DNA of 63,616 bases, the filler included. It is 9 parts of 9 records of this genome, joined end to end, with 100 filler letters (N's around TTAATTAATTAA, not from the genome) between each part and the next. Parts side by side here need not be neighbours in the genome. Positions count along the whole stretch, not along the records: positions 34,369 to 44,066 come from SRR31147125_38539; 8 more parts are not named here. The stretch is one strand, 5' to 3'. The position numbers were made by a program, and so were the translations under genes. The notes beneath the pieces are model-generated. The model was not told the origin of the DNA and searched no databases. It saw only the letters and a program-made list of their open reading frames with translations. Positions 2,012-57,420 of this stretch are shown here, piece after piece (position 1 is the stretch's first letter; each line of letters begins with the position of its first letter).

Positions 2012-4570
2012 TTATTCATACCTCAAACATTCAACAATATTGGCCCTCATGGCACGGATCGCAGGCATGATTCCGGCAAAGAAACCGGCGGTTACCATGA
2101 AAAATACGGTGATGAGGGAGACAACCATCGAGTTTTGGGGCGCGAATAGCATCATCAGGGATGTGTTTTGCGCGCGCAGAGTGTCTATTAAGACGTTCAG
2201 GATATAATTCAATCCCCAGCCAATGAGAAAACCGATGATCCCACCGAAAAAGGTAACAAGCAGGGCCTCAGTGAGAAATTGCTGAAAAATATGCTTTTTA
2301 AAAGCGCCTACAGCTCTTCGAATCCCTATTTCACGCATTCGCTGAGTGACAACAAAAAACATGATATTCATCACTCCAACAGCTCCGATTAATAAAGTGA
2401 TAACGCCTACCCCTCCAAGAAAAATCTCAAGTGCCAGTACAATCGGGCCTACTGCCTGTAATATAGATAACTCACTATATATACCTAACGCATCTTTATC
2501 TTCCGGTTCAAATCCATTTAACCGGGCCAGTTTGTTTCGGATTTCTTCTTCAGCCTGTTTATAACGAGCTTTTTCAACTGGGGAGACGAGTATTCTGGAA
2601 AAATAACCCTCTTCATTAAAATCCATAAAGGCGGTGGTGATCGGGATAAAAAGCTTTTCATCATCCAGTGAATCTCTAATGGACATTTGCATGCCTTTGG
2701 GCCTGGCTGTTCCTATGACACGATATCGAATACCTTTTACTTTTACATATTTTCCCAGCGCATCAGCAGTTTGACTGCCAAAAAGACGCTCCTTAATCGT
2801 TGCACCGAGAAAACAGACACGGCGCTTTTCATCTATATCGCCCTGATTAATAAACCGTCCTTCAGCAACGTGATAATTCCGCATCTGCAGTGTACCAGGA
2901 GCCACGCCAAGGGTGTGCACAGCGCGATTCTCATTTCCGACCTTGAAGACCGGTCGATCACAATTGTATTCCGGTAAAACCTGGTTTATATCAACAGAAA
3001 AAGCCTTCAAAGCCTGTAAATCTCTTTCAGTCAGGCGCACTCGTTTTCCGGTTCGATATGTGCCTTTTTCACTTTTAATTCGGCCAGGGTTCACGTAAAT
3101 TGTCTCTTCTCCCATTTTACCGAATTCTCTGTTAAAAAATCCCCTGAAACCGGCACCAAAGCCGATGAGTACAATAATCGCAGCGATCCCCCAAAAAATG
3201 CCAAATACGGTAAGAAAAGTACGGGTTTTATTAGCCCGTATTTCCAGTAAAGCCTGACCAACAAGTTCACCCGTTATAGTTCTGGATACCCATAACGGTT
3301 CAGGGGTTTTGGCAGATTTGGATGCCTCGCCGCGATCGAACCTTAATGCGTCAACAGGTTGCAAGTTGGCTGCATTTTTCGCCGGAATATATCCTGAAAT
3401 GATGCCGGTGAAAATCATAACCATAACAACGATCAATGACAGCTCAACCGAATGTTGTGGCAGTGGGATGGCGGGGGGAAGAGGAAGCAGATTGATGCCA
3501 CCTAACAATGCGGAGCCCAGCAAAAAACCGATAAATCCACCAATCGAGGTAATAAAGAGGCTTTCAGCTAAAAATTGTAAGCGTATATCTCTTTGTTTGG
3601 CTCCCACTGATTTACGAATGCCGATTTCACTGGTCCGTTCCTGTACGGACAGGAACATGATATTCATAACGCCTATACCGCCAATTAAAAGAGTCACTAT
3701 TCCGATCATTCCCAACAGGATGTTGAGCCCCAGAGTGAGATATTTAAACATCTTTTCAAAAAATGCAAATTCAAGGAGAAAGAGTGCCTCCTGATCTTCC
3801 GGATCGTAATGGTGTCGATCAGCCATGACCTTGCGAATCTCTTTTGTCGCCTGACTGGAACTAACCCCCTCGGTCGCTTTCGCAAATATGATATCAAGTG
3901 ATTTTCCATCGCTCCATAATTGCTGAGCTGTCGTTAACGGCACAAGCACCTGATCATCGTGACGCGTGTTGATTTGCGACGTCTGGGATTTTTTCTCGAT
4001 AGCCACTCCTACAACCTGAAAACTTATACCACGTATTCGTATTTTATCTCCAATGGGAGAGGATTCCGGCCCGAATAGCTGTTCTTTAACATTGTTACCG
4101 ATGAAAGCAAAGCGTCTTTTGTTTTTAATATCCTCATCTGTAATAAAGCGTCCCTGAGCCACATACCAATTATTCATTTGTTTGGCAACAGGTAGAATTC
4201 CGCGAATACCATATCTGCGAGATTCGTTGCCATATTTTACTTCATAATTTCGGTTTACTTGCGGATTTACAGTGCCAACTGATGGGCATAATTCTGTAAT
4301 CGCATCTATGTCCTTCATTTCTACGACAACAGGACGACCGGTTTTATATCCACCTACGCCAGTCGACGTGTGACCACCCGTGAAAAAGATTAAATCTTCA
4401 CCGATCTTGCTCATTCCCTCATGCATATAGTCGCGAAACCCGAATCCCCATCCAAGAAGGATCATGATAGCCATGATACCCCAGATAATTCCAAACAGAG
4501 TGAGTGTACTGCGAAGTTTGTTGGCTTTAAGATCAAAAAGAGCCTGTTTTATAATCTCTGACAAAAGCAT
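2012..4570 (-). CDS. ABC transporter permease made of two tandem MacB/FtsX-type units
   Basis: Both halves have the NKxRxxLTxFGIxWG start, a periplasmic domain with GRFI, and GVMNIMF...R..EIGIR..VGA...QFL.E motifs. Confidence 0.9.
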   Translation of the reverse strand: MLLSEIIKQALFDLKANKLRSTLTLFGIIWGIMAIMILLGWGFGFRDYMHEGMSKIGEDLIFFTGGHTSTGVGGYKTGRPVVVEMKDIDAITELCPSVGTVNPQVNRNYEVKYGNESRRYGIRGILPVAKQMNNWYVAQGRFITDEDIKNKRRFAFIGNNVKEQLFGPESSPIGDKIRIRGISFQVVGVAIEKKSQTSQINTRHDDQVLVPLTTAQQLWSDGKSLDIIFAKATEGVSSSQATKEIRKVMADRHHYDPEDQEALFLLEFAFFEKMFKYLTLGLNILLGMIGIVTLLIGGIGVMNIMFLSVQERTSEIGIRKSVGAKQRDIRLQFLAESLFITSIGGFIGFLLGSALLGGINLLPLPPAIPLPQHSVELSLIVVMVMIFTGIISGYIPAKNAANLQPVDALRFDRGEASKSAKTPEPLWVSRTITGELVGQALLEIRANKTRTFLTVFGIFWGIAAIIVLIGFGAGFRGFFNREFGKMGEETIYVNPGRIKSEKGTYRTGKRVRLTERDLQALKAFSVDINQVLPEYNCDRPVFKVGNENRAVHTLGVAPGTLQMRNYHVAEGRFINQGDIDEKRRVCFLGATIKERLFGSQTADALGKYVKVKGIRYRVIGTARPKGMQMSIRDSLDDEKLFIPITTAFMDFNEEGYFSRILVSPVEKARYKQAEEEIRNKLARLNGFEPEDKDALGIYSELSILQAVGPIVLALEIFLGGVGVITLLIGAVGVMNIMFFVVTQRMREIGIRRAVGAFKKHIFQQFLTEALLVTFFGGIIGFLIGWGLNYILNVLIDTLRAQNTSLMMLFAPQNSMVVSLITVFFMVTAGFFAGIMPAIRAMRANIVECLRYE

Positions 4571-7081: not shown

Positions 7082-7181
7082 NNNNNNNNNNNNNNNNNNN
7101 NNNNNNNNNNNNNNNNNNNNNNNNNTTAATTAATTAANNNNNNNNNNNNNNNNNNNNNNNNNNNNNNNNNNNNNNNNNNNN
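7082..7181. other. Artificial contig spacer
   Basis: N44-TTAATTAATTAA-N44, with stop codons in all six frames. Confidence 0.99.
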
Positions 7182-15393: not shown

Positions 15394-15493
15394 NNNNNNN
15401 NNNNNNNNNNNNNNNNNNNNNNNNNNNNNNNNNNNNNTTAATTAATTAANNNNNNNNNNNNNNNNNNNNNNNNNNNNNNNNNNNNNNNNNNNN
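15394..15493. other. Artificial contig spacer
   Basis: N44-TTAATTAATTAA-N44. Confidence 0.99.
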
Positions 15494-21076: not shown

Positions 21077-21176
21077 NNNNNNNNNNNNNNNNNNNNNNNN
21101 NNNNNNNNNNNNNNNNNNNNTTAATTAATTAANNNNNNNNNNNNNNNNNNNNNNNNNNNNNNNNNNNNNNNNNNNN
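21077..21176. other. Artificial contig spacer
   Basis: N44-TTAATTAATTAA-N44. Confidence 0.99.
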
Positions 21177-27213: not shown

Positions 27214-27313
27214 NNNNNNNNNNNNNNNNNNNNNNNNNNNNNNNNNNNNNNNNNNNNTTAATTAATTAANNNNNNNNNNNNNNNNNNNNNNNNNNNNNNN
27301 NNNNNNNNNNNNN
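27214..27313. other. Artificial contig spacer
   Basis: N44-TTAATTAATTAA-N44. Confidence 0.99.
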
Positions 27314-28779: not shown

Positions 28780-31700
28780 GTGAGTATTAAAGCAATCAAA
28801 ATAGGAATTATCCTTTGGATAGCTTTCCTGGTTGCGCTCTCCGGTTCTGCCTTTGCCGAGAGAAAAGTCTTTATCAACAATGAGTGGGTCAGTGTTGACA
28901 AGCTAAGACAAAACTCGGAAGAAGATTATGAATCTTATATGGAGCGTGGTTGTACACCAGGAGAATACAAAGTACTAATCACACAAGCGGAATACATACC
29001 GCCTGTTCAGGTTTTTGCCAGAGTAGTTCATTGCAATCCAAATGGAGTATGGGAGGTTGTAACGGGATTGACTGAACAAAATTTCCGGCTTCATGAAGGT
29101 ATCGGACACCTTGATAATGGAACATGTAACGCTTCCGGCAAGAAATCTGTAGTTGATTATGTAGTTGTAGAAAATCTAAGCGAATGGAACTCAGCTTCCA
29201 TTTCACTTGGTATTGACATTTCAGGTTCCATGTCGGGGGGAGCTTTGGAGGAAGCCAAAACCAAACTTAAAGAATTCCTCAACAACGTATCCCCTGCCGA
29301 TAGGATCGGATTGGTATCATTTGAATCAACAGCAAAAATAGAACATGATTTTTCATTTGATACAGCAAGTCTCACCAGTGCAGTTGATGCTCTCACAACA
29401 ATGGGCAGCACAGCTCTTCTTGATGCTATTTGCCTGTCACTTGATGAAGTAGTATCTCAAAATGGAGCAAAGGCCGTAGTCGTTTTTACGGATGGACAGG
29501 AAAATCAATCTCAAAATTGTACAACGGTACAGCAGGTTATAGACAAAGCAAAATCCTATTTTATACCTGTATATACAATTGGTGTAGGTAGCGGTACTGA
29601 TTCCAATTATCTACAAACAATTGCTGACGCAACAAACGGCAAATTTTACAATGCTCCTTCTGCCAGTGATCTGGCAGCTATTTACGACGAAATCACTCAC
29701 CTGATTCAGTCACAATATGTAATAAACTACAGATCGCCATTCCCTGAAAGTTCAGGAATTGACAGATGTGGCGATGTGCAGGTCATTCTTCCGGGAGGAA
29801 CTCAGATAGATCCTGCGGCATATAGTTACACAATCAGCGGAACTGACTCCATATCATTATCTTTATCGACAGAAACAAGATCATTGATTTACAGTGGTTC
29901 CGGTAATGATATCCCAATGCCCATTTCAGTTGAAGTTGTATCTCCAAACGAATCAGTCGAAGGATTTCTGTACTGGAGACCTGCCAATGGAGATTTCGAG
30001 AAAATCCCATTACAGATAAACGCAAGGGGAACAAGTTCGGGTTTATATAAAGCTACAATCGCTAAAGAAAATGTGATTGAGCCTGGAATCGCTTTCTTTG
30101 TAGAATTCATCGGTGATTCGACTGGTACAAGGGTAACTCTTCCAACAGTTGGTCCTCAAACAAACCCATACACAATTGCAATTAGCCCAAACGCTCCTCC
30201 TGTAATTAGCACCAATTCTTTCCCAGCTAATTTTGATTCTTCACAGGATCTCAAGATCAAATTCAGAGTTTTTGATGAAACGGATGAAACAACTGAAGCC
30301 AATGTATATACAAGAAAAGTTCGAGTAGGCGGTCATTCATTCCCGTTTAATAAAATAGCAGCCACAAGAACTTCCGGTTCTGCACAAAGCGGAAATTGGG
30401 AAGCGACCATTCCTGTTAAAGATTTAGGTGGACTTGGTATTGAAGTCTTTATTACAGCAACCGACAATTTTGGAATCAAAGGCTATTATGCGACAATGGA
30501 TTATCCAAGGCGCATTCTGCCCAAGGAAACTGTAAAAGATCCTGGTGATGGATTCACTTTACCATACACCATGGGACCATTCTATTTAACAGGTACGGAT
30601 TCAACCAGTATTAGCCCAGCCAGTCGAGACGAGACTGTTTACAAGTACAAAATATCTGGTGGATTACATATTAACCTTCTTGGTAATTGGGCATATTTTG
30701 AGGCTGATAATTGCACTATCGACTTGCAATTCCCTCCAGTTATGCTTGAATGCGATTCTTCTGTATTAACATTCAATGAAGAAGTTGTACTTTTCCAGGA
30801 TAAAAGCATAAGTTCATTGCCGGTTGATCCTGCAATCTTTTCCAGTAATGGAGAAATCAGACACGCAAGTGATTCAGGCACTATAGATAACGATTTACTT
30901 GATGCATTTCAAGCTCAGCTAGGTGCCAATCTTGAACTGTTTGGACTGGCTTATGCAAGAGTTGATAACTATGGATGCTTGCTATATGACACTTCCATAG
31001 AGAGCTTTTTCATTGGAAAACTTGCACAAATGTTCGACTTTAACATGGGGCTAACCAACAAATTCAGCGGAAAACCTCAAATTGGAGTCGGAGCTGTTGG
31101 AGTTTGCCCGAATATCGGAGTCAAACTGGTTGACGTAAAAGTCGGATTGAAGGTTTCAGTTTCAGACTGGATCAACCCAGTCGAAAAGGTATCTGGTGGT
31201 TTCAACTTCAATATTAAAACTTCCGATGCTCCAGACAGATGGAAAAAGAACTTGGGTTTCGGCGATCACGCACAAATGCTCACTGGTTCTTTGAAGGTAA
31301 ACCTTGGTTGTTCCTTGTTCTTTGCCGGTGCTAAAGAAAACTGCCAAATCGATAAAGTTTCACTCCCGATAAACAAAGCTTCACTTGGAGTGGATTTGCA
31401 TTGGCCTCTAGTCGGAATCAAAAACTGGGGATCATGTTTTGATATGGATATGGATGTCAGCGTCCAAAGCAGATTGCTGCTTGCTACCATTCCAATACCT
31501 CCTCCAGGATTTCCACTTAATCTCAGATTCAAACAAGCAAGCATTGAACTGGCTTCCGCAGGCAAGATGGCTGCTGGAATTGGTAAACTGCTTGGTGCAG
31601 ATAGTTGGAACGCCTGCCCTGCAAAAGATACCAGATTCACCGTCGGCATTGGTTTGTCGCTTGATCCGGCAGGTATTGACGTTGCGCAAAAGATTGGTCT

Positions 31701-34268
31701 TGGCTTAAAAGGAAGCCTCGACTTCTCCATTCTCAGAGCTGACTTCAACGGCTGGGCGGAATGGATTGATGGTCAGGTTGGCTGCCCACTTTGCTCAATG
31801 GGCGTGGATGGTCAAGCACAACTAATCTACGGAGATATCAGCTTGACTATTCCTCTGATAAAACTTCCAATCAGTGCAAAAGGATCGTTGCTGAAACTCT
31901 ACGGTGGGGTTGCCTGGAAGTGGGATTGGCCACAAGGCAACAAGTATCCACTGGCATTAACTCTTGAAGGTGTTACAGAAACCACAATGCCTGGCATTCC
32001 TGGCTTTGAATTATTCAAGGGTAAAAATTCAACAACTTTCAGTCTTAATACAACACCCTTTAAAATTGAAGCAATTTCCGGCGGTATCGTTCAGGCGATG
32101 ATTCCAGAGGCTGTTGGAAAAATTTTCCCTGGTTTAGGCGGCAAAGTACTAAGTAGCGCAAAATCTTATGGGAAAATCAAAATTGACGGTCAGGACAATG
32201 AATTCCTCGTGGTTGGTGGAAAAACAGTCCTGTTTGGAAAGCTTGATCTTGTCATGAAACTTCTAATCAACAAGGATGGAGTTGACTTCGAGTTTGTAGG
32301 TCTTGAAGACATTCCAACCCATGATGTCAATATAAACGCTCTTGTCAAAGGACGCTTGAGAGGAAAGCTCGCTGCTGTCGATCCTGAAACAGGTGAACAT
32401 ATCTTCCAGCTTCTAGGCAACGAAGATTCTATAGCTGTTTTCATAGGATGGGAAAACGAACAATCAGGATTTAAACTTGTAGATCCCGATGGAGCAGAGA
32501 TTTTTCCGGGTGAGAAAGTTGAGGATCTTCAAATTTCTATCGTAAACTGGACTGATGGCAAAGGTGCTTTTGCAGTAATTGGCCGACCTAAAGCCGGTAT
32601 TTACAAAATAGTACCTGATGATCCTCAAAACAGTCAGCTTCAAGTTGCTGTCAAGCTAGTAACCAAATCCGCAATGCTTAATGAAGTTACAAAACTTTCT
32701 GCAAGCGGTGGATCTGAAGGTGCTGTCGATCTCGAATGGGAGCTTAGCGATCTTGGTAAATCAATAGCTGAAGACAAACAAGCGACCCTTCATGTCTTCC
32801 TCGATACCGATAATCAGGGTGAGGATGGAACTTTGATAGGCAGTCTAAACGCCAAAGATGGTTCAGGAAACCTGACTCTCAAGGGATTCAGACCAGGTAA
32901 ATACTACTTCTACTCCCTGATGGTTACCGGCGAAGGCTTGCCAAGTGCAACGTATTCCAAAGATCCGCTGTCAGTCAGCTTCAGTGGCAGACCGGATAAG
33001 GTAGAAGATCTGGAAGTTGAAACCGCTGATAATGACACGGTTGATCTTCAATGGTCTTCGATTGGAGGAGTTAGCGGATATAGAGTTTATCTATCGGATT
33101 CAGCAGAGAAATCGATCAACACCAAACAGGTACCGATAATTCTCTATGGTAGCGACATAACCAAGTACAATTTCACAAAACTTGTACCTGGTGGAAAGTA
33201 TCTGGTTGCAGTAAGCGCATTTAACTCTCAGGGTGAAGGAGAATTGTCTGATGTAAAAGACTTTACTTATCTTGCATCAAACACAAACAACAATCCTTCC
33301 TTCGACTACGCCAAGAATCAGCTACCACTTGCGATTCCGGCCAAAAAACAGTTTAGCGCGCAACTAAAAGCAACAGATCCGGATCAGGATGAGGAAATCA
33401 GGTTCCAGATTGCAGAAGGACCTGACGCTATGTCAATAGAATCAAACACTGGAATAATCAACTGGACACCTAAATCAACAGACATCGGCCATCATAAGAT
33501 TGCATTCAGAGTCGTCGATGAAAGAGGTGGTTCCGATTATTACCAGTGGGAATTTGCCGTTACAAACGAATGGGCGTCTGACCAAGTAACTCTGGAAGAC
33601 CCAAATAAGCAGGAGGTAGACGTGGATATTTCCAAAGATGAAGGATGTAATTGTAATACAAGCCAGACAAACGGTTCAGTGGCATTTATGCTAATGTTAC
33701 TCGGTTTGTTGGGAGCTTTGCGCTACCGAAAGGTAAGACAAGCATTTAATCAAATGAAAAACACTTCATTAATTGGCATCTGTATTGTTCTTTCTTCGGC
33801 TTTCATTTTCGCTTCATGTGAAAGCAGTGGAGATGATTGCACTGTGGATACAGATTGTTCATCAGGACAAACCTGTGTTGATGGATCATGCTATGCCAGT
33901 TGTAAATCAAACAAGGATTGCGAAACAACAACTCCCGCATCTCGCCCCTATTCTCTCGGCTTTTACAAAGCGGAAGACGGCAGCACAGATGGAGACGATG
34001 GTCAAACAACCGAGGACGAAAAAGCAGCACCCGAAACAGAAGATGGTGATACTGCCGAAGCTGTTGACCCGGAAAAACTTGTTTGTCATCCGGCTTATCA
34101 GGCATGTAAACCGAAATGCGCCACAGATGAAGATTGCCCGAATGCCAAGTGTGATAGCGGATACTGCCTTGGAGAAAATCAGGTTCTTGATGGTGATATA
34201 GAAATCACGGAAAAAGAACAGGATGTTCCTCCAGCAGAATGCAATGAAGGTGACCGAAAGTGTGAAAA
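28780..34268 (+). CDS. Giant surface protein: signal peptide, vWA, Ig-like, beta-rich core, FN3, cadherin/He_PIG-like, MYXO-CTERM-like anchor, second lipoprotein signal, Cys-rich repeats; 3' truncated
   Basis: GAGGAG RBS and GTG start; MIDAS DISGSM...T...TDG; LQWS...GYRVY...YLVAVSAFN..GEG; LKATDPD...GIINWTP; GCNC-TM-RYRK; FASC; CxxDxDC repeats. Confidence 0.88.
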
Positions 34269-34368
34269 NNNNNNNNNNNNNNNNNNNNNNNNNNNNNNNN
34301 NNNNNNNNNNNNTTAATTAATTAANNNNNNNNNNNNNNNNNNNNNNNNNNNNNNNNNNNNNNNNNNNN
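34269..34368. other. Artificial contig spacer
   Basis: N44-TTAATTAATTAA-N44. Confidence 0.99.
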
Positions 34369-34405
34369 GACTCCAATATTTCCAGCCGGGGTTTTAATTT
34401 TTTAA

Positions 34406-36274
34406 TTATGCAGGCTTCTGACTAGCCATGCTTTCCATAGCGTCCTGAACTGCATATTTAATCTCGGATATACGCTCACGGTCGCTGCCTGTTTCAGCAG
34501 GATACTCGGGCTGACCTATCTTCATCGTTACCAGCGGCTTTTTGTGCCACATAGACACCGGCCACTTTGCTTCACGGAACGTGAACACCATCGGCACAAC
34601 AGGAACGTTTGACTTCACGGCAAGGTGAAAAGCTCCATTCTTGAAAGGACGTATATTGTCGTTCCACGGCCAGAGCGAAGCTTCGGGATAGAAATGAACT
34701 ATCCTTCCTTTCTTAAGCTCTTTTCGCATAGACTCCATAAAAGCATGCAGTGCCTTTGGCGACTCCGGAATCGGCACACCGCCAAGAAGCCTAACAAGCC
34801 TTCTTACAACAGGTATCTCGAAGTTTGATTTAAGCGTTGCAAAAAACGGCTTTCTTGGGAAAAGGGTGCACGCAACCATAGGCGAATCCAGAAAATGTAC
34901 ATGATTGGTTACCGTAACAGCGCCACCTTTTAAAAACCTCAGGTTCTTCTTTCCTCTTATTCTCAGACCGAAAAACAGATTTGAAACGATACTCAAAAGA
35001 GGAATAGCAATCACGTAAAACAGCAATGATGACCCTAGTCTAAAGAAAATATTCCTGTTGACAAAACGGTAGTTCTTGTCGACTTTGTAGTTGAACGGAG
35101 TGGGCATATGCACGATGTGTCTGTTTGGATCGTTAGCATCAGCTTCCCTGCGCTTCTGTTTTGCTATCACATTGCTGTAAACTTCCTCAATGCTGTCTAC
35201 CGATTTGTCAAGCGAATAGCCTTTAGCGCTTTCTATATACGCCTGCTTCATCTGCTCTTTTTCCTGCGGATGTTCTATCCAGTAGTCTATCTTTTTGGCA
35301 AGATCGTTATAGTCTTTGTTTTTAAACAAACTGCGCTCATCTAGAGCAAACTGTTTTGCTGCGCTCATTTTTGCATTTGCGATAACGGGAACGCATCCGC
35401 ATGCTATAGCTTCTATGCACACTATAGCTTCGATTTCTGCCTCAGCAGCATGGACGTACAAGTCGCACTGGTTATACAGCTTTGTTAATTGCTCTTTGTC
35501 TACATAGTCGAATATCGGCTTGTTCTTAACCTTCCTTCCAAGCCTTTCGTAATACTTTTGTTTTGGCCCTTTGCCTAGGAAAACGAGCTGTATCTTATCG
35601 CTGTATTTAGAGCGCATCGCTGCTTTAATTATAAGATCCTGCCTCTTTTCGGCAGCCAGCCGCCCTACCATCATTATTACAAACTTATCTTTATGCTCTC
35701 TTGGCTTTTCAATATCCATGGGTCTGAAAGCTTTATCTACTCCGTTTGATATAACATGCAGCTTTGAATTATAGTTGTGTTGCTTGAGCTGGTCCGCAAT
35801 AAACTTTGACGGGCAGTGTATATCTTCGATATGTCGGTAAAAACGCCGTTTAAACCAGAAGTACAGCATGTTTGTCAGCGGCTTTAGATACTTCATGCCT
35901 ATGTTGTAAGATATGTTTTCCGGCTGGCAGTGGAATGCAGCCATATAAGGTACGTTCATTTCTTTTGCTATCTGCCTTGTCCTCATACACAGCTTGTACG
36001 GAAGATAAAGATGGGCTATGTCTGCTCCTTCAAGCGCTTTTCGAATAACATCGTCGTCCGGCTTAGCAAACACCATGCCCTGTGCTGACACAAGCGGATC
36101 GAATATCCAAAGACTTCCGCTTGGTACAACAAACTTGTCCGGTGCTTCCTCCCCGGTAGACACTATTACAACTTGGTGTCCTCTCTCTCTTAAGGTATCA
36201 GCAAAACGGACAGCAGAAATAGTAGTACCATTGTTCTTGCTGTCGTACTGATCCAGTACCAGAGCTATTTTCAT
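34406..36274 (-). CDS. GT4 glycosyltransferase fused to a PlsC/LPLAT-family acyltransferase
   Basis: NGTTIS, VISNGVD, VGRLAAEKRQD, EIEAIVCIEA (E-X7-E); C-terminal NHVHFLD, FYPEA, PFKNGAF...VPVVP. Confidence 0.9.
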   Translation of the reverse strand: MKIALVLDQYDSKNNGTTISAVRFADTLRERGHQVVIVSTGEEAPDKFVVPSGSLWIFDPLVSAQGMVFAKPDDDVIRKALEGADIAHLYLPYKLCMRTRQIAKEMNVPYMAAFHCQPENISYNIGMKYLKPLTNMLYFWFKRRFYRHIEDIHCPSKFIADQLKQHNYNSKLHVISNGVDKAFRPMDIEKPREHKDKFVIMMVGRLAAEKRQDLIIKAAMRSKYSDKIQLVFLGKGPKQKYYERLGRKVKNKPIFDYVDKEQLTKLYNQCDLYVHAAEAEIEAIVCIEAIACGCVPVIANAKMSAAKQFALDERSLFKNKDYNDLAKKIDYWIEHPQEKEQMKQAYIESAKGYSLDKSVDSIEEVYSNVIAKQKRREADANDPNRHIVHMPTPFNYKVDKNYRFVNRNIFFRLGSSLLFYVIAIPLLSIVSNLFFGLRIRGKKNLRFLKGGAVTVTNHVHFLDSPMVACTLFPRKPFFATLKSNFEIPVVRRLVRLLGGVPIPESPKALHAFMESMRKELKKGRIVHFYPEASLWPWNDNIRPFKNGAFHLAVKSNVPVVPMVFTFREAKWPVSMWHKKPLVTMKIGQPEYPAETGSDRERISEIKYAVQDAMESMASQKPA

Positions 36275-36527
36275 TTTTAAGATTAATAAAGGCGGTTAAA
36301 AAAAATTATTATATGATAGCGGTAAGCCTTTATTAAAAGCCTCCTTTCATATTATATTAAATATATATATTACAGTACCTAAAATATACACCTTTCGGCA
36401 GATAAAATCAAATTTAGGGAGGTTGTAATCATTGCCGTGAAACTATGTCGGCTTCCATCAAAATGCGGCAATTATAAGACAGCCCAAATACGCTTTAGGC
36501 TGCTTTATAATTAACAACACTTTTTTA

Positions 36528-36788
36528 TTAGTTGTTCTCCTGCTTCTCCGCTTTCTTTATAAGCGACTTTTCAAGACGTTTCATCTTCATATTTTTGAAG
36601 GACATTCTGATTTTCTTCCAGAATACACCCACAGCTACACCGCCGGCAATTACCACACCGGCAACAATCTGCACAATATAGGAAGTAGCCGCCGGATCGA
36701 TATAAGCAAACGCCGTTGAAGAAAGTGCAAGCATCGTCAGCAGCACATATGCTGTAAAAATACCCGTGTTACGTAAAAATCTTTTCAT
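36528..36788 (-). CDS. Small membrane protein: signal peptide, YIDP, one TM, basic tail
   Basis: GGAGGG RBS; AFA cleavage site followed by YIDPAATSY, hydrophobic helix, WKKIR. Starts 14 nt after the reductase stop. Confidence 0.8.
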   Translation of the reverse strand: MKRFLRNTGIFTAYVLLTMLALSSTAFAYIDPAATSYIVQIVAGVVIAGGVAVGVFWKKIRMSFKNMKMKRLEKSLIKKAEKQENN

Positions 36789-36802
36789 CTTGTTCCCTCC
36801 GT

Positions 36803-37939
36803 CTATAATATATTGATCAATATTTTTTTAACTTCGCTCTTCTCCAGCATGACTGGATTGTTGTCCATTCTGCCGAGTGTAAAAGCGCCGTTTGTAATAC
36901 TTTCTAAATCGGCTTCCTTTATATCAAAAGCTGAAAGTCTAAGCTCTTGTATGTCTTTCGAAACGTCGAACAGCCATTTTTCAAATCCATTGATTCCGCC
37001 AAAAATATTTGTTATTTGAGATAGCTCAGGTACGACCTTTTGATTTATTCGCATCATGGACGATAGCGTAAGCGCCGCGGCAAACCCATGTTCAACATCG
37101 TGGTTCATGGTCAGCGGATACGAGATGCTGTGGCATGCGGTAGTTTTCGTCATAGAAAACGAAAGTCCTGCAAGCAATGACCCAAGACACATCTCTTCTC
37201 TTGCTTTTATGTCGCTTAGGTTTCCAAGTGCAGCAGGCAGTGCGCGCTTTATACGCTCTATAGAATCCTTTGCGAGCGCCTGTGAAAGCGGATTACGCTG
37301 CTTTGCCCAAAAGCCTTCCATAGCATGGCTGAGAGCGTCTAGTCCGGTGGCAAGCGTCAACCGTTTCGGCATGCTCAGTGTCAGCTCTGGCACGATGAGT
37401 GCATGTTTTGGATAGCATTTTGGATGTTCAACAGAAAGCTTTTTCTTGTTCTCGAAGTCCCATACCGTCGCCCATCTTGTTACTTCAGAGCCTGTGCCTG
37501 CAGTAGTCGGTACAGCAATTATATCTGACAGGAAATCTCCTTTGAAAAATGACTTCTCGCTGATAGCTTCCACAACTTGTTCATAGCTTACATCGTGCGT
37601 TTCGGCAATCCCCTGCAATGCACTAATAGCCTTTGCAAGGTCTATACTGCTGCCCCCGCCTATTGCGAGAATGAATTCGTATTTATCTTCGCTGCGAAGC
37701 ACGTTTATCTGCCTTTGTACATCATCAACTGACGGGTTTGGATTTACATCGCTTATAAGTCTATTTTGATTGCTGCTTATAAACCTGTCTATACTCACAC
37801 ATTCTTTCAGCCTCTTTAAAGCGCCTTCGCTTGCAACCACTAACGTTCGCTTGTCAGTAAGAGACGAAAACAAATCCTCCATTGTTTGCATAGAGCCAAA
37901 GCGTATATCAACTGGTGAAAACGGCTGGTATTGCATCAT
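36803..37939 (-). CDS. Iron-containing alcohol dehydrogenase, probable phosphonoacetaldehyde reductase (PhpC-like)
   Basis: GGGSSIDLAK, PTTAGTGSEVT, DALSHAME, HSISYP...HG; directly downstream of pepM. Confidence 0.85.
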   Translation of the reverse strand: MMQYQPFSPVDIRFGSMQTMEDLFSSLTDKRTLVVASEGALKRLKECVSIDRFISSNQNRLISDVNPNPSVDDVQRQINVLRSEDKYEFILAIGGGSSIDLAKAISALQGIAETHDVSYEQVVEAISEKSFFKGDFLSDIIAVPTTAGTGSEVTRWATVWDFENKKKLSVEHPKCYPKHALIVPELTLSMPKRLTLATGLDALSHAMEGFWAKQRNPLSQALAKDSIERIKRALPAALGNLSDIKAREEMCLGSLLAGLSFSMTKTTACHSISYPLTMNHDVEHGFAAALTLSSMMRINQKVVPELSQITNIFGGINGFEKWLFDVSKDIQELRLSAFDIKEADLESITNGAFTLGRMDNNPVMLEKSEVKKILINIL

Positions 37940-37948
37940 TAATTCTCC

Positions 37949-39241
37949 CTATTTGTCCGGTATCAGTGTCAATATCTGCTTGATCGGCATACAATTATCG
38001 CTGACTTCAAGCGACCTTCCGTTTGCAAGTATCTGCTCTGCCGTTCTCTGCATAGCCGGAAACATACTTCTTATAAGGTGATTGGCGTGTATTACTATGT
38101 TAACTCCGTGCTCAGCAAGCTCGCTTTCGGTAATGCAGTTATAAGTAGTCGGAACAACAACTATAGGAACACCCTTGTTGTTCTCCCTGAACCGTTTGCA
38201 GAACTCCAAGACTTCATCCGGCTTTTTACTGCGTGAGTGTATCATTATGCCGTCTGCACCTGCTTGTACATACGCTGTACAACGGCTTAGAGCATCATCA
38301 ATGCCTTTTTCGAGTATCAAACTCTCACAGCGTGCGATTATCATAAAGTCTTTTGTCTTCAGAGCGTTCTTACCGGCCTTTATTTTTTCGCAGAACTCTT
38401 CTATCCCCGCCTGTGTCTGGTTTACTTCAGTTCCGAACAGCGAGTTCTTCTTTAGTCCGTTCTTGTCTTCAATGATTATTGCTGAAACACCCATTCTCTC
38501 AAGTGTCCGAATATTAAATACAAAGTGTTCAACGAGTCCACCTGTGTCTCCGTCAAGTATTATAGGCTTAGTCGTAACGTCCATTATCTCTTCTATCGTG
38601 TGTATTCTTGACGTCATGTCTACTAGCTCTATATCCGGCTTACCCTTTACTGTGGAATCACAAAGACTAGATACCCACATAGCGTCAAACTCTTTAGTGC
38701 CTTTTGGAGTCTCAATCTTGGTCTTTTCGGCAATCAAGCCGCTAAGACCGCTGTGCGCTTCAATAACAGACAAACATGGCTTCATGGCAAGCAGTTTTTT
38801 TAATCTGCTGCGCCTGTTTTCCGGCATTGCAAGAACTTTATCAAGTCTTGTCATTATTGCTTCAGTTGGTGTCTGAGTATAAGGGAATTCTATTAGCTCT
38901 CCGTTCCACTGTTTCAGCTGTTCGATTATATTCTCACGTATCTCTGCCTGATAACCAGTCCTCCAGTTATCGCCGTGAACAACGATATCGGGCTTTAGCT
39001 CATCAAGTATATCGTAGTACTCCAAAGAATCCTGAACTACAACGTTCGAAACGCTGCTTATGCTGCTGAACATTTCAATTCGTTCCTGAAGAGGTATCAG
39101 AGGATATCGCTTATACGTTGCAATTACTTCATCTGTCAGTACACCCACAGTCAGTTCGCCAAGCTGCGCCGCTCTCTTTAAGATATTTAAATGTCCGCAG
39201 TGAATAATGTCCGTGCTGAAACACGCATATACACGTTTCAT
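37949..39241 (-). CDS. pepM: Phosphoenolpyruvate mutase with N-terminal cytidylyltransferase domain
   Basis: HCGH (HxGH) and VVHGDNW in the N-domain; DGDTGG and the EDKNGLKKNS PepM signature. Confidence 0.96.
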   Translation of the reverse strand: MKRVYACFSTDIIHCGHLNILKRAAQLGELTVGVLTDEVIATYKRYPLIPLQERIEMFSSISSVSNVVVQDSLEYYDILDELKPDIVVHGDNWRTGYQAEIRENIIEQLKQWNGELIEFPYTQTPTEAIMTRLDKVLAMPENRRSRLKKLLAMKPCLSVIEAHSGLSGLIAEKTKIETPKGTKEFDAMWVSSLCDSTVKGKPDIELVDMTSRIHTIEEIMDVTTKPIILDGDTGGLVEHFVFNIRTLERMGVSAIIIEDKNGLKKNSLFGTEVNQTQAGIEEFCEKIKAGKNALKTKDFMIIARCESLILEKGIDDALSRCTAYVQAGADGIMIHSRSKKPDEVLEFCKRFRENNKGVPIVVVPTTYNCITESELAEHGVNIVIHANHLIRSMFPAMQRTAEQILANGRSLEVSDNCMPIKQILTLIPDK

Positions 39242-39974
39242 ATTGATATCCTTTCTGATTCGACCAAATTCTTAAATCTGCTGGAAATCTCGGTCAAATC
39301 ATTTTCGTTATCTATTTCATTACAAAGCCTTTTCTTTAGTTCCATTGCTGTAATTAAAACCTTGTCTGTTATGTTGTTAAGTGCATTTTCAGCATAAACA
39401 TTTCGCTGTCCGCTGCTGCAAAGTCCGCTATTTCACCAAGCCACATAACCATATCTTCTTTGCATATATGATAAATTGGCTGGCAAGCAACACAGTCTTT
39501 TCCAAAATAATCTATGCCGACTTTTATTACTCTGTTTCCATTAAGCTTTGCCTTAAAATCTTTCTCGGGAAGCAGCAAACTCGAATCTATTGCAACGCAG
39601 CTTTCGTAGCTGTTTAGTAAGTCCCTGGCTACTGATGGTTCAAAAACTAAATCTCCGTGAAGCAAAAGTATATCGTCTTGCAGATAATCCTTAGCACATT
39701 CAATCGAATATATATAGTTCGTGCCGGCATAATCCGGATTAGCAACAAACTTAATGTCCATATCCATTTTCAAAGACTCAACGTATTCCTCCAGCTCATC
39801 TGCAAACGGACCAGTTGTTATCACAACTTCATTTATGCCTACTTTTTTAAGTACAAAAAGCTGCCAGCTTATTATAGTAAATCCAGCGCCGATTTCCGTC
39901 ATGCATTTTGGCTTATCTTTCGTAATGTATCCCATGCGTTTGCCTATGCCGGAGTTTAATATCAGTGCCTTCAT
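39238..39974 (-). CDS. LicC/PntC-like phosphonate/phosphocholine cytidylyltransferase, frameshifted at 39420-39422
   Basis: LILNSGIGKRM....PKC, NPDY..TNYIYS, LHGDLVF. Adding one T restores YAENALN...EIDNENDL and an ATGA overlap with pepM. Confidence 0.85.
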
Positions 39975-39976
39975 CG

Positions 39977-41109
39977 CTAATTCCTCTCGCTTAAGTATGC
40001 CATCAAAGCCTGTTTGTTCTCTTTAGGAGTAGTTGTGGGTCTTCCAAGGTCTTTCCTTGACCCCAGCGCTGCCTTTACCTCTATTAGCGCTGTTCCTGCC
40101 TTGGCTTTAGCTTCGTTTAAACATTGCTGCAAGCTTTCTTCGTCAGAAACCTGTCTGCAATAATCATACCCAAAGGTTTTCGCTATTGCGCTGTAGTCAG
40201 CCTTGCCCATAACAACAGGCATACCCCCCACCGACTCGTGTGCTTCATTGTTGAGCACGATGTGAATGAGATTACTGCATTTCTGCTGAGCTTCAACCAG
40301 TGCACTTCCAAGGTGCATCACCATTGCGCCGTCACCGTCAATACACCATACTCGAGTATTAGGTTTTTCAAGTGCTATTCCAAGTGCAATCATTGAAGAA
40401 TGCCCCATAGAACCGACTGTAAGAAAGTCGTGCGCATGACCTTTACCCTGGGCCTCACGTATCTCGAACAGCTCTCTCGATGCCTTGCCAGTTGTAGAGA
40501 CGAATACATCCTCTTCATCTGCATTCTCGGCTATAGTACGTATTGCGATTTCTCGGGTCATCGTATTCCCATTTTTATAATTGGCTTTATCATCAGCGCT
40601 TAGTGCGCCCTTTCTTATAACAAAAGCATAACTTTTGCCCAGTCTTGCGAGCTCAGAAGCTTTTTTAGAGACTCTTCTAGCTCTTCAACCTCCGTCTCCT
40701 TTGACACAACACAATATTCAATATTCATCATGTCAAGAATAGGAAGCGTAATTTCTCCCTGAAATACGTGCTGAGGCTCGTCTTTAATGCCCGGCTCTCC
40801 CCTCCATCCGATTACGAATATGCATGGTATGGCGTATACATCGCCGCTTAGAAGCGATGCTATGGGGTTGACGGCATTGCCTATTCCGCTGTTTTGCATA
40901 TATACCAATGCAGGTTTACCCGTTGCAAGGTAATGACCTGCCGCAAGGCCAACTGCTCCGCCTTCGTTGGCAGCCACGATATGCTCTCTGTCTACTCCGT
41001 ATTCAGCATACAGAAGGTTACATAGCGCCCCCAGCTGGGAGTCAGGAACGCCAAAGTACCGGCTGACGCCTATGCTTTGTATCCCGTTCAAGAAAGCTTT
41101 AACATCCAT
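39977..41109 (-). CDS. ppd: Phosphonopyruvate decarboxylase, one gene split by a frameshift at T6 run 40661-40666
   Basis: GVPDSQL, AANEG.AVGLAAG, YMQNSGIGNAVNP, DEPQH; then STTGKASRELF, VGSMGH, DGDG...NN..H.SVGG. Adding one A reads LKKASELARLGKSYAFVIRKGAL...MTRE. Confidence 0.93.
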
Positions 41110-41110
41110 A

Positions 41111-43192
41111 CTATTTTTCCTTATCCGTTAGTTTGTCGATTATGTACTGTCCGCCTACCTCTGCGCTTCTTCCGAAGTTTGCAATGTAGGTCTCTCTTAT
41201 CTGCGTTATTTTAGAGGCATATTTTTCACCATTTGCAAGCAGCTCCTCAATTGACGGACACAGCTTGTCCATATGAGCCGGGTCTACCTCTATTCCTATC
41301 TCTTTTCTAAGTACCATCTCAAGCGGCTTAGCCTCTATAACGTCGTACTCTGGATTATTTATCTTGGGCGGCGTGTTAATGAATATGACTGGCTTTTTAG
41401 TTACGAATGCCGCTTCATACGCTGTACCCGACCAGTCGCTGATAACTACATCAGAATTGAATATAGAGCTGCTGTCCGAAAAATCAAGCTCGAACGCAAG
41501 GTCTCCTCCTTCGTAACACCTGTATCGTTCAACTATAGCGTTCATCTTTGCGGCATAACGTTTAACATATTCGGGGTGAGGTCTTACAACAACCTGATAC
41601 CCTTTACCAAGAAGCTCGTCAAGAAGCTCGTGTATACAGCTGTCAAGGATATTCTCGTCCTGCCAGGACGGTGCAATTAGTATCTTTTTATTCTCTCTCG
41701 TCGTTTTTTCCATAGCATCATAACGTTCCTGCAGCTCTTCCAGCATGGAATATCCGCACAATACGAGGTCCTTTTCAGGCAGATCATAATACTGTTCCGT
41801 CTGGCGTATCTCATCAAACTGAAACTTCCCAACACAGAATATAGTGTTATAATGGTCAAGCGCACCTTTCCTTAGAACCATAGTCGTGCTGAGGGGATAA
41901 TGGAACATATAAACATACTCCATGCTCTTCTTGACCAGAGATCTTTTCAGATGGAACTGCTGTATGTCCGACATAGTCATTACGAACATATCTGCCTCTA
42001 TCTTCATGAACAACACAATAAGCCTGTTGTCGTCAATATAGTAAGGAATCAGCTGCGGATTATCAAAATCAAAAATCTGATCGTTCGGATCGCTCGTTAC
42101 GTAGTGTATGACTATATCTGAATTCTCCGTGATATATTCAATAACGCCCTTGAAGTACTTATAGAATCCGCTTTTTTCTGAATAAAACACAAGCTTCTTT
42201 ATGTTTTCTTCATCCAGAAACCTCTTGTAGTCTGCTTTAGCTTTTGCCTTTTGCTCCGCTGTCGGTTTGAGTTTCTTCTCAAGCTCCTTGCTGTTTGCCA
42301 ACGCTTCCTTGCTGTTCTCCAGCGCTTCATAATCTATATACTTTTTAGGCGGATACATTGCGTTCACGATAAGTACTATAAAGAGAGTGATAGTATTGCT
42401 GAGTATCCAGTATATGCCCACACCTGCCGGAACTATGAAAGCAAAATATAGAGAGAACAATGTCAGGAAAATAGCTATGCCCCATCGCCCGAACCAGCCT
42501 GCTTCACGCTGGAGTACATTAACTTTGTTCTGCACAGCCGAAAGCAGAAAAGCGCTTCCTCCGGAAAGAAGCGGTATAATAAGCAGACTGTTCCATTGCA
42601 CTAAGCTGGGTGTCTTTGAAAGATTAAAACCAAGAAAATTAAGGTCAAGCGCTTTGATTTTATCAATAGCCTCAGTTATGCCCGGAACGTTAATCTGAGA
42701 AAAGGCATGAGCATACGCAGGGTCGTTTACCATCTCTACAATCTTCATATGAGCGCCGGAACCTAGCTCGGTCGCTCCAAGCAGCTCCATTGCTTTTGCA
42801 GTCAAAGCGTCTATGATATCCGCGTTTATATGCAGCAAATGCTGAAGAGGGTTGTAAACCACTGCAATAAGTCCAAGTATTATAGGAATCTGAATGAGCA
42901 GTGGAATAGTACCTGCAAGCGGTCTGTACTTTTCCTGTTTATATAAAGCAAGCTGCTTCTCGCCTATCAAATCTCTGTTGCCCACACACGATGCAGCAAT
43001 CTCATTAAGCCTGGGTTTGAGCTTCACCATTTTTATAGAGTTCTTCTGCACCCAGATGTTTAGCGGAAACATCAAAGCTTTTGTAAACAGGGTGAACAGC
43101 AAAATAGCAACGCCGTAGTTTTTGACCAGTATATAGCACAGCCACATTATATAGCCGAGAGGTATTCCGATAACTGTATTAATAAAATCCAT
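41111..43192 (-). CDS. YidC/Oxa1 membrane domain fused to a CDP-glycerol glycerophosphotransferase (TagB/TagF)-like domain
   Basis: N-terminus YGVAILLFTLFTKALMFPL, LYKQEKYRPLAG.IPLLIQIPI, FLGFNL, PAGVGIYWILSN. C-terminus YMFH, ILIAPSW, VRPHP, SDVVISDWSG.AYE....KPVIF. Confidence 0.88.
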   Translation of the reverse strand: MDFINTVIGIPLGYIMWLCYILVKNYGVAILLFTLFTKALMFPLNIWVQKNSIKMVKLKPRLNEIAASCVGNRDLIGEKQLALYKQEKYRPLAGTIPLLIQIPIILGLIAVVYNPLQHLLHINADIIDALTAKAMELLGATELGSGAHMKIVEMVNDPAYAHAFSQINVPGITEAIDKIKALDLNFLGFNLSKTPSLVQWNSLLIIPLLSGGSAFLLSAVQNKVNVLQREAGWFGRWGIAIFLTLFSLYFAFIVPAGVGIYWILSNTITLFIVLIVNAMYPPKKYIDYEALENSKEALANSKELEKKLKPTAEQKAKAKADYKRFLDEENIKKLVFYSEKSGFYKYFKGVIEYITENSDIVIHYVTSDPNDQIFDFDNPQLIPYYIDDNRLIVLFMKIEADMFVMTMSDIQQFHLKRSLVKKSMEYVYMFHYPLSTTMVLRKGALDHYNTIFCVGKFQFDEIRQTEQYYDLPEKDLVLCGYSMLEELQERYDAMEKTTRENKKILIAPSWQDENILDSCIHELLDELLGKGYQVVVRPHPEYVKRYAAKMNAIVERYRCYEGGDLAFELDFSDSSSIFNSDVVISDWSGTAYEAAFVTKKPVIFINTPPKINNPEYDVIEAKPLEMVLRKEIGIEVDPAHMDKLCPSIEELLANGEKYASKITQIRETYIANFGRSAEVGGQYIIDKLTDKEK

Positions 43193-43268
43193 TTTTTCAC
43201 CTTAGAGTTTTAGTTCTTTTATCTGTTGTATAAACTGCTATAAGCAGCGTTTTAGCTCGTGCTGTAGA

Positions 43269-44066
43269 TTAATCCTCTGGAGGGCCTGTCATATTAAGGT
43301 CAAAGCCATATTCATTATTTAACACAGTCCTCAGAACGTTTGCTCCGCTAAGACCCGTAATGTCTCCCAGATCGTCCCTGCCTCCGGTATAAACTGCAAA
43401 GAAAGTATCGGTGGACTGCTCATAATTGGTTTCCGGTCCATCCCAAAGATATTTGTTTGCTTTAACGCCATGATCAGAAAGAACGAGGATCACAGCACTA
43501 GGATCATTTTCCACGATACCTTGCATGGTATATGTTATTCGTCCGCAAATATACTCGTACTGCTCTAAGAAATATTTTGAATCTGTCCAGTTCATCCTGT
43601 TTTCTTCATCTACCGGATTCCCATTTATGTCATAGATAAACGGTGCATGAGGGCAGCATATATAAGTGAACGTCATTGCGTTTTCATACTTATAACTCTC
43701 GGGAAGTGTATAGTAGGCAAGTATCTCGTCATACAACTCTTTGCCCGGCGGAATGACACCAATTGCATCAACAAGCGGTCTGAAAATCGTTCTGTCCATG
43801 ATGATATCAAGAGTAGAAGAGCCATCTTCTGTCGTATGGTATTTTTTGCCGGCATGATACTCCATTCGTGGTTCGAAGCCTACAAATCCCGAAACTTCTG
43901 TTTCATACAAGCTGTAACCCATATCTTTCATCAAACCGAAGAACTGCGCATTTCTAAACTGTTCTTCGCAGGCAAAAGCCCCATCCGTTTCATAACTGAA
44001 AACATAATCAAGATTAAATAGACCGGACAGAGTTTCCATCGTAAACTGTCTGTAGTTGGTACAGTC
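43269..44066 (-). CDS. Alkaline phosphatase superfamily (sulfatase-like/LtaS-like) protein, 5' truncated
   Basis: The frame is open to the contig edge; NYRQFTMETLSGLFN, PHAPF and ILVLSDHG motifs. Confidence 0.75.
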   Translation of the reverse strand, partial: DCTNYRQFTMETLSGLFNLDYVFSYETDGAFACEEQFRNAQFFGLMKDMGYSLYETEVSGFVGFEPRMEYHAGKKYHTTEDGSSTLDIIMDRTIFRPLVDAIGVIPPGKELYDEILAYYTLPESYKYENAMTFTYICCPHAPFIYDINGNPVDEENRMNWTDSKYFLEQYEYICGRITYTMQGIVENDPSAVILVLSDHGVKANKYLWDGPETNYEQSTDTFFAVYTGGRDDLGDITGLSGANVLRTVLNNEYGFDLNMTGPPED

Positions 44067-44166
44067 NNNNNNNNNNNNNNNNNNNNNNNNNNNNNNNNNN
44101 NNNNNNNNNNTTAATTAATTAANNNNNNNNNNNNNNNNNNNNNNNNNNNNNNNNNNNNNNNNNNNN
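44067..44166. other. Artificial contig spacer
   Basis: N44-TTAATTAATTAA-N44. Confidence 0.99.
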
Positions 44167-50968: not shown

Positions 50969-51068
50969 NNNNNNNNNNNNNNNNNNNNNNNNNNNNNNNN
51001 NNNNNNNNNNNNTTAATTAATTAANNNNNNNNNNNNNNNNNNNNNNNNNNNNNNNNNNNNNNNNNNNN
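50969..51068. other. Artificial contig spacer
   Basis: N44-TTAATTAATTAA-N44. Confidence 0.99.
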
Positions 51069-57320: not shown

Positions 57321-57420
57321 NNNNNNNNNNNNNNNNNNNNNNNNNNNNNNNNNNNNNNNNNNNNTTAATTAATTAANNNNNNNNNNNNNNNNNNNNNNNN
57401 NNNNNNNNNNNNNNNNNNNN
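57321..57420. other. Artificial contig spacer
   Basis: N44-TTAATTAATTAA-N44. Confidence 0.99.

Follow-up and report, generated by a model that had tools for sequence, protein, structure and literature searches.

The window analyzed here is a stretch of 63,616 nucleotides, and its subject is a gene at 36528–36788 on the minus strand that encodes an 86-residue microprotein, which may ferry or hand over head groups for the gut-bacterial surface. The window consists of nine contigs joined by eight linkers (7082–7181, 15394–15493, 21077–21176, 27214–27313, 34269–34368, 44067–44166, 50969–51068 and 57321–57420), each made of 44 N's, 12 nucleotides with a guanine-cytosine (GC) content of 0% and a further 44 N's. 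The GC fraction of the nine contigs spans 0.377 to 0.601, and the neighboring contigs are probably unrelated, with other organisms as their source. Given this nine-contig composition, only positions 34369–44066 (record SRR31147125_38539) are the true neighborhood of the microprotein gene. The SusD, GH30 and (hybrid) histidine kinase genes of the other contigs were rejected as operon context because of the N linkers and the GC differences. One neighboring contig carries, at 28780–34320 on the plus strand, an open reading frame (ORF) of 1846 residues that reaches the N linker; its product has a signal peptide, and its C-terminal repeats are rich in Cys.

The microprotein gene is the last gene of an operon whose genes, from the ORF at 43269–44066 onward, all lie on the minus strand and are separated by short gaps. 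The ORF at 43269–44066 corresponds, by hhalign profile comparison, to the C-terminal part of a multi-pass membrane protein of the alkaline-phosphatase superfamily, referred to below as sulfatase-like, and it is cut by the contig end. Next comes a 693-residue protein (41111–43192) in which family matches and a structural model indicate a YidC-like domain fused to a TagF-fold domain. It is followed by a phosphonopyruvate decarboxylase (39977–41109) split into an alpha part (40615–41109) and a beta part (39977–40561) that match the two halves of TIGR03297, by a nucleotidyltransferase (39369–39974; MobA-like/NTP_transferase by Pfam/NCBIfam-type family matches) and by a cytidylyltransferase fused to phosphoenolpyruvate (PEP) mutase (37949–39241; TIGR02320, 420 bits, above the cut-off). 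The gene immediately preceding that of the microprotein (36803–37939) encodes an Fe-dependent alcohol dehydrogenase that comes closest, among NCBIfam families, to the phosphonate-cluster type PsrA/TIGR03405, with a score below the cut-off; the enzyme is presumed to be a phosphonoacetaldehyde reductase that yields 2-hydroxyethylphosphonate. As read from the sequence, a GGAGGG Shine-Dalgarno element (36795–36800, minus strand) lies 6 nucleotides 5′ of the microprotein ATG start codon and directly 3′ of the preceding gene's stop codon. A terminator-like hairpin, identified by consensus match only, lies 3′ of the microprotein stop codon (36479–36503, minus strand), and an Rfam scan of contig 34369–44066 returned no RNA family. 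A gene for a GT4-acyltransferase fusion (34406–36274) is located 253 nucleotides beyond the microprotein gene, behind the hairpin; it was rejected as a member of the system, having its own promoter-like site and a counterpart in 0 of the 77 related loci described below. By these assignments, the contig holds a complete three-part set of microprotein, YidC-TagF fusion and sulfatase-like protein, the third gene being truncated by the assembly.

The first-pass annotation of this ORF had claimed a signal peptide ending in AFA, a short exposed segment YIDPAATSY, one transmembrane helix and a basic tail, and the sequence has exactly this layout. Residues 1–28 (36705–36788, minus strand, as are all microprotein segments) resemble a signal peptide, with an n-region that is basic (+3 over residues 1–8), a hydrophobic stretch and a terminal A-F-A. 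Residues 29–40 (36669–36704) form a core motif, Y-I-D-P-A-A-T-S-Y-I-V-Q, delineated by its conservation in relatives; the tip, residues 29–37, contains four hydroxyls (Tyr29, Thr35, Ser36 and Tyr37) and has a net charge of −1. Hydropathy predicts that residues 38–57 (36618–36677) form a Gly/Ala-rich transmembrane helix, in which Gly44, Gly50 and Gly54 are conserved and which ends in F-W. The remaining residues 58–86 (36531–36617) make up a basic tail, predicted to be cytoplasmic, with 11 Lys/Arg versus 3 Asp/Glu residues (net charge +8) and conserved Lys59, Ile60 and Phe64. The signal peptide and the positive-inside tail point to an N-out topology with the tip outside the cell, and cleavage of the signal peptide after A-x-A would make Tyr29 the first residue of a 58-residue mature peptide.

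The microprotein appears to belong to a family that is undescribed in the libraries searched. The Pfam-A search returned only Bd3614_N at 16.7 bits versus a cut-off of 25, a sub-threshold match at chance level, and the NCBIfam search returned 0 families. The nearest ESM Atlas clusters were all annotated 'hypothetical protein' with no Pfam domain, and a literature search for the letters of the motif found nothing relevant. In a word-indexed protein search, 72 of 75 candidates passed E ≤ 0.01, the best at 1e-40; none of these 72 close relatives has a Pfam domain, and their names are mostly absent or 'hypothetical'. A HMMER search of 1.84 billion representatives in a 50%-identity library yielded 836 cluster representatives at E ≤ 0.001, including 40 at E ≤ 1e-10. 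Judged by its homologs, the microprotein gene is real, far beyond chance. When species genomes were scanned with the alignment of the family, 209 stretches matched, and 171 of them code for a relative. Locus counts are based on the best 80, which correspond to 77 loci (designated by L-numbers), mostly with 10 kb on each side; relatives from the protein databases are designated by P-numbers.

Conservation was counted over the 72 close relatives and up to 149 distant representatives, the denominators varying with the number of aligned positions. Tyr29 is present in 72/72 close and 147/147 distant relatives, that is, in all 219 aligned sequences, and is never replaced by Phe or Trp. Asp31 follows with 72/72 and 146/148, Pro32 with 68/72 and 143/148, and Gln40 with 72/72 and 133/149. 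Ala28, at position −1 of the putative cleavage site, is found in 69/69 and 133/144 sequences, respectively, and together with the charges of tip and tail it upholds the procoat/Pf3-like shape proposed in the first-pass annotation. Tyr37 occurs in 72/72 close and 124/149 distant relatives, with Met (13 sequences), Phe (3) and Ile also tolerated, and at position 56 Phe and Tyr exchange freely (80 Phe, 59 Tyr). Because these other aromatic positions tolerate exchange, the strict conservation of Tyr29 stands out. Thr35 is present in 61/72 close and 60/149 distant relatives and Ser or Thr at position 36 in 68/72 and 126/149, so that the earlier expectation of conserved tip hydroxyls holds strictly for Tyr29 alone and is weakened at the three other positions. 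The conserved parts of the microprotein are the N-terminal tip and the helix, and the least conserved part is the tail. The signal-peptide segment is absent at the DNA level in 4 of 76 loci (L032, L035, L057 and L058), whose proteins begin with M-Y-I-D-P or have at most 9 residues before the Tyr; an M-Y-[IL]-D-P start was also seen in 6 of 222 database proteins. Starts at or near the Tyr in these forms fit a mature end at Tyr29.

The first partner of the microprotein is the YidC-TagF fusion. Its N-terminal part (residues ~1–280) matches PF02096 (111.7 bits) and TIGR03592 (95.8 bits), both above the cut-offs, which assigns it to the YidC/Oxa1 family. Lys38 of this part aligns with the groove arginine of E. 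coli YidC, which we take to be R366, and is invariant in 36/36 fusions. The YidC-like domain spans 252 residues compared with the 163 positions of the Pfam model. In the AlphaFold2 model of the fusion, which has a mean predicted local distance difference test (pLDDT) score of 89, extra helices and a small sheet lie between the second and third membrane helices (H124–180; residues ~115–200), and F186, G188 and P195 of the YidC-like domain are conserved. The modeled insert is probably at the outer face, where it could contact the tip of the microprotein or the outer enzyme. For the C-terminal part of the model (residues ~330–693), the top ten PDB matches obtained with Foldseek are TagF, the best with an E value of 5e-11, and TarL is also listed; no match to the Pfam TagF family was obtained for the fusion protein at E ≤ 0.01. 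Two histidines, H431 and H539, are invariant in the fusion and are candidate counterparts of the TagF catalytic histidines. A literature search found no paper on a YidC-TagF fusion, and neither YidC nor TagF is named in the main text of two papers on phosphonate genomics (PMC6697681, PMC8942020).

The second partner is the sulfatase-like protein, a multi-pass protein whose outside domain is, by fold and sequence, of catalytic type. The ORF at 43269–44066, which runs open to the contig end, has no Pfam match; in the nearest relatives of the locus (L001–L005) a protein of 495–521 residues stands in its place. A profile of the family of L001–L005 type aligned to that of the sulfatase-like proteins fused to the microprotein module with an hhalign probability of 97.4% and an E value of 1e-11 over 410 columns, and the match includes the conserved motifs H-x-P and S-D-H-G. 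Matches of the sulfatase-like family to PF00884 are weak or absent, and its D..D, H..H and D-H motifs are invariant. A natural fusion of module and sulfatase-like protein was modeled with AlphaFold2 from a 15-sequence alignment (mean pLDDT 80.5), and the resulting fold matches PbgA/YejM, other alkaline-phosphatase-superfamily proteins and LtaS. The linker between module and enzyme, residues 75–106, is disordered in this model (pLDDT <50), which suggests a flexible tether.

The gene neighborhoods tie the three proteins together. Neighbors were counted by tblastn with the window proteins, by all-against-all clustering of 904 neighboring ORFs and by iterated hidden Markov model (HMM) searches. 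The 77 loci are mostly from Clostridia (Christensenellaceae, Oscillospiraceae, Roseburia and Ruminococcus), with a minority from Coriobacteriales, Bifidobacteriaceae, Propionibacteriaceae and one Leptolinea; cultured carriers are Roseburia inulinivorans DSM 16841 (L026), Bittarella massiliensis (L035) and Ruminococcus sp. FC2018 (L043). Co-occurrence with YidC-TagF fusions and sulfatase-like genes, which the first-pass annotation had put forward as a check, is borne out. Both the YidC and the TagF parts are present in 59 of the 77 loci (either part in 62) and in 36 of the 41 loci that have at least 5 kb on both sides, hereafter well-flanked; in 47 of the 77 the fusion gene is adjacent, within 300 nucleotides. 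The iterated HMM of the sulfatase-like family identified 83 ORFs in 57 loci, so that this multi-pass protein is present in 57/77 loci and in 31/41 well-flanked ones, and its gene is within 300 nucleotides of, or fused to, that of the microprotein in 40/77. At least one partner accompanies the microprotein in 70/77 loci and in 40/41 well-flanked loci (one has neither), and both partners do so in 49/77 and 28/41, respectively. In 5 of the 7 loci with neither partner (L009, L012, L024, L030 and L072), the contig stops at the gene or close to it. The PEP mutase is found in 18/77 loci by tblastn at ≥40% identity (14/41 well-flanked) and in 15 by ORF-level blastp at ≥50% coverage. Other genes of the loci encode choline-kinase-like proteins (8), BCCT transporters (3), aminotransferases and nucleotidyltransferases (36/77). 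The trio of microprotein, YidC-TagF fusion and sulfatase-like protein forms the constant core, around which the pathway for the head group differs between loci. The microprotein gene is downstream of the fusion gene here and in most loci, and directly upstream of it in, for example, L033, L038, L040 and L042; it ends a phosphonate operon here and in L001–L006, L009, L012, L017 and L031. An MBOAT-family gene lies a few kb from the module in four loci (L069, 5333–6793, and three others; cluster 20), and is of interest given the analogy with DltX considered below but is too rare for the core.

The microprotein also occurs in fused, tandem and duplicated forms. It constitutes the N-terminus of the sulfatase-like protein in 17/77 loci and likewise in the database proteins P0165, P0172 and P0190. 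An alignment of 15 fused proteins shows the motif A-Y-I-D-P-A-T-T-x-Y-x-I-Q to be invariant and the next 40–100 residues to be variable and gapped. Where fused paralogs stand side by side (L049, L051 and L053) each keeps its own module, and in L019 and L007 a single free microprotein gene accompanies up to three unfused sulfatase-like paralogs. Bacterium 1XD42-76 has two complete sets (L016 and L017). Both comprise a microprotein, a fusion enzyme and a sulfatase-like gene of their own, and one set includes phosphonate genes where the other has an aminotransferase instead. Two proteins, P0073 (111 residues) and P0140 (161 residues), are tandem two-module forms; the first module of P0073 reads A-H-I-D-P instead of A-Y-I-D-P. 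A search for longer homologs returned one match, P0223 (359 residues), which combines Fe-alcohol-dehydrogenase domains with the microprotein; it probably reflects read-through, or joining during gene calling, of two genes that are adjacent as in this operon.

TagF-type enzymes transfer phospho-alcohols from cytidine diphosphate (CDP) donors at the cytoplasmic face of the membrane, and membrane enzymes of the alkaline-phosphatase superfamily act outside through a covalent Ser/Thr intermediate. For substrates of YidC, recognition is pictured as charge attraction, and the one acidic residue in the 9-residue tip together with the conserved groove lysine of the fusion fits this picture; we infer that the microprotein is handled by the YidC-like domain. 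The phosphonate genomics papers cited above describe how PEP mutase, phosphonopyruvate decarboxylase and an Fe-dependent alcohol dehydrogenase produce 2-hydroxyethylphosphonate, and how cytidylyltransferases fused to PEP mutase make cytidine monophosphate (CMP)-phosphonates (PMC6697681, PMC8942020). Excerpts of a report on DltX present it as a microprotein whose invariant Tyr, on the outside, takes D-alanine from the MBOAT protein DltB and passes it to DltD, and whose motif is free in the Dlt system and fused to an enzyme in other pathways (PMC12148441).

In the mechanism proposed, cytoplasmic enzymes, identified by family assignment, make a nucleotide-activated head group, which should be CMP-2-hydroxyethylphosphonate here; the genes in other genomes point to aminoethylphosphonate, choline-type or other head groups. 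The microprotein would be inserted N-out in the manner of procoat or Pf3, probably by the YidC-like domain, and removal of the signal peptide after A-x-A would leave the invariant Tyr at the very N-terminus, exposed on the outer side of the membrane. The Gly/Ala-rich helix of the microprotein would dock on the YidC-like domain and its tip would work with the outer enzyme. Between the YidC-TagF side and the outer phosphotransferase, the Tyr hydroxyl would transiently carry or position a head group of phosphoryl or phosphonyl type, and the phosphotransferase would pass this group to a surface polymer. The module would be either free or tethered to the outer enzyme by the long flexible linker, predicted to be cytoplasmic, and it would serve many head groups rather than phosphonates specifically. 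Three features parallel DltX, namely that the module exists free, fused and in tandem, that its tether is flexible and that its Tyr is never substituted; a Tyr-based relay or positioning role is therefore favored. The microprotein is tentatively taken to be a subunit of a three-part envelope head-group system, most likely with a DltX-like role of its Tyr, a reading that leads the explanations considered here while standing well short of probable. Its strongest form, in which the system would be the first protein-borne phosphoryl or phosphonyl relay, with an N-terminal Tyr loaded from CDP or CMP donors through the TagF-fold domain, the YidC-like groove as the conduit and the outer transferase as the recipient, is considerably more doubtful and on balance unlikely.

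Several observations weigh against a Tyr relay. The weakest point is geometric, in that the active site of the TagF fold faces the cytoplasm while Tyr29 is expected to lie outside. Of the four hydroxyls in the tip, only that of Tyr29 is universal in the relatives, and A-Y-x-D-P could simply combine a cleavage site, an interfacial aromatic residue and a helix N-cap. PbgA/YejM, to which the outer partner is structurally most similar, is presented in its entry titles as lipid-binding and not as a transferase, and the model of the fused protein carries no information, in either direction, on docking of the module onto the outer domain (pLDDT <50 for motif residues 18–32 and 56–71 for the module helix). 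To our knowledge, LtaS and EptA-type enzymes function without a microprotein. Regarding gene content, the YidC-TagF fusion is not found within 10 kb in 5/41 well-flanked loci, and neither partner is present in the 10 kb beside the L020 gene (8904–9254) or on the whole 7.6-kb contig of L027 (gene at 3218–3538). The family members of L020 and L027 adjoin a Na+/H+ exchanger gene and are genuine exceptions that any model must accommodate.

The alternative that survives best, a possible one although we consider it somewhat unlikely, is that the microprotein is a non-covalent adaptor or assembly subunit. Through its helix it would bind the YidC-like domain, the membrane portion of the outer enzyme or both, and in this way bring the two enzymes together or activate one. 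The tip would then be merely a cleavage site with an interfacial Tyr and an Asp-Pro helix cap, and a lipid, scrambled by the YidC-like groove, would carry the head group across the membrane. Gene linkage and the fusions fit an adaptor equally well, its Gly/Ala-rich helix is typical of tight helix packing, and alkaline-phosphatase-superfamily transferases such as LtaS use lipid donors. Scrambling itself has precedent: excerpts of one source report that E. coli YidC scrambles glycerophospholipids in vitro and that B. subtilis MisCB does so in simulations (PMC11047089). On the other hand, Tyr29 never gives way to Phe or Trp in the 219 aligned sequences, while other aromatic positions vary. The fused module, moreover, is predicted to sit on a long disordered linker and not to be packed into the enzyme, and a free microprotein could tether two enzymes only if it bound both.

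The invariant hydroxyl, predicted to be outside, would also suit a final acceptor or membrane anchor, in which the peptide itself is decorated or primes a phospho(no)-alcohol chain to give a peptide-anchored, teichoic-acid-like molecule. TagF-fold enzymes include polymerases, according to entry titles, and sulfatase-family enzymes that modify Ser/Thr of proteins are known, for example the pilin-modifying PptA and EptC. This explanation is nevertheless improbable, as only ~9 residues would be exposed, beneath a thick wall; enzyme-fused forms make a poor end product, and the single free gene in L019 and L007 serves up to three sulfatase-like paralogs.

Still less credence is given to an ordinary or sensor client of the YidC-like domain, the insertion of which would report insertase activity and tune expression with no chemistry involved. 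The model for such a client is MifM, the Bacillus subtilis sensor of YidC2, a small N-out membrane protein that is genetically linked to a YidC paralog. The microprotein has the shape of a YidC-only substrate, and its gene is directly upstream of the fusion in the loci L033, L038, L040 and L042. In comparison with MifM, however, the gene order is mostly reversed, both here and in the majority of loci; conservation resides in the N-terminal tip and the helix and there is no conserved C-terminal arrest segment, the tail being the least conserved part; and the enzyme-fused form of 17 loci cannot act as a translation sensor. Membership in the MifM-type sensor class was rejected on these grounds. 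The class of C-terminal sorting signals, which combine a motif, a helix and a basic cluster, was rejected as well, since the module is a whole protein or the N-terminus of an enzyme and not the C-terminus of a cargo protein.

Finally, a carrier specific for phosphonates, as the first-pass annotation had suggested, which would receive 2-hydroxyethylphosphonate in the cytoplasm and undergo a single flip by the fused YidC, is highly improbable: the gene does close the phosphonate operons listed above, but the PEP mutase is confined to 18/77 loci and the other 59 contradict the specificity, with choline-kinase-like, BCCT and other nucleotidyltransferase genes found elsewhere, and a single-use carrier fused to a 600-residue enzyme would be very wasteful. 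The fused forms are hard to reconcile with one membrane crossing per cargo and agree better with a relay of DltX type that remains on the outer side.

For most gut Firmicutes, the route by which phosphocholine, aminoethylphosphonate and related head groups travel from the cytoplasm to surface polymers is an unsolved problem. The loci described here define a compact gene set, consisting of a nucleotidyltransferase, the YidC-TagF fusion, a Tyr-tipped microprotein and an outer phosphatase-like enzyme, with the microprotein encoded in at least 171 species genomes. All of its parts come from superfamilies already known, and there is a precedent for the proposed logic. Should the Tyr relay hold, the shuttle principle of DltX would extend from acyl to phosphoryl chemistry, giving a phospho-analog of the DltB-DltX-DltD acyl relay, and an Oxa1-family domain would gain a new, non-insertase role; the product in this organism could be a surface polymer decorated with 2-hydroxyethylphosphonate, or even a poly-phosphonate. 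Should it not hold, the gene set would still define a new obligate microprotein subunit.

Among known systems, the teichoic acid phosphotransferases TagF (a polymerase) and TarL are those to which the C-terminal domain of the YidC-TagF fusion compares: it has the TagF fold and differs from them by the attached YidC-like domain. The sulfatase-like protein shares with LtaS, EptA and PbgA (YejM) a multi-pass build and an outer alkaline-phosphatase-superfamily fold, but it is very divergent and often has the Tyr module at its N-terminus. The microprotein itself resembles M13 procoat and Pf3 coat in being small, with a very short acidic translocated segment and a basic inside tail; the forms with a signal peptide have a procoat-like A-x-A site and those lacking it resemble Pf3. 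The tip charge of −1, the tail charge of +8 and the Ala at position −1 place it in the procoat/Pf3-type class by sequence, its YidC dependence being putative. In contrast to the phage proteins, it is not of phage origin, its translocated segment is only ~9 residues long and it has a private YidC-like domain that is fused to an enzyme. The closest functional parallel is DltX, the acyl-shuttle microprotein of teichoic acid D-alanylation. Each is a single-pass protein whose short terminal motif, located at the outer face (predicted in the case of the microprotein), contains an invariant Tyr. DltX stands, and the microprotein would stand, between a membrane enzyme that is supplied from the cytoplasm and a transferase on the outside that forms a covalent intermediate, and in both the motif occurs free or fused. 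The DltX motif, FXYXXF, is C-terminal whereas A-Y-x-D-P is N-terminal, and there is no sequence relation between them; the partners of DltX are an MBOAT protein (DltB) and an SGNH protein (DltD), in place of the YidC-TagF fusion and the alkaline-phosphatase-superfamily protein; and the cargo is an acyl group in DltX versus a putative phosphoryl or phosphonyl group here. On these counts, the microprotein is an analog of DltX and not a member of its family.

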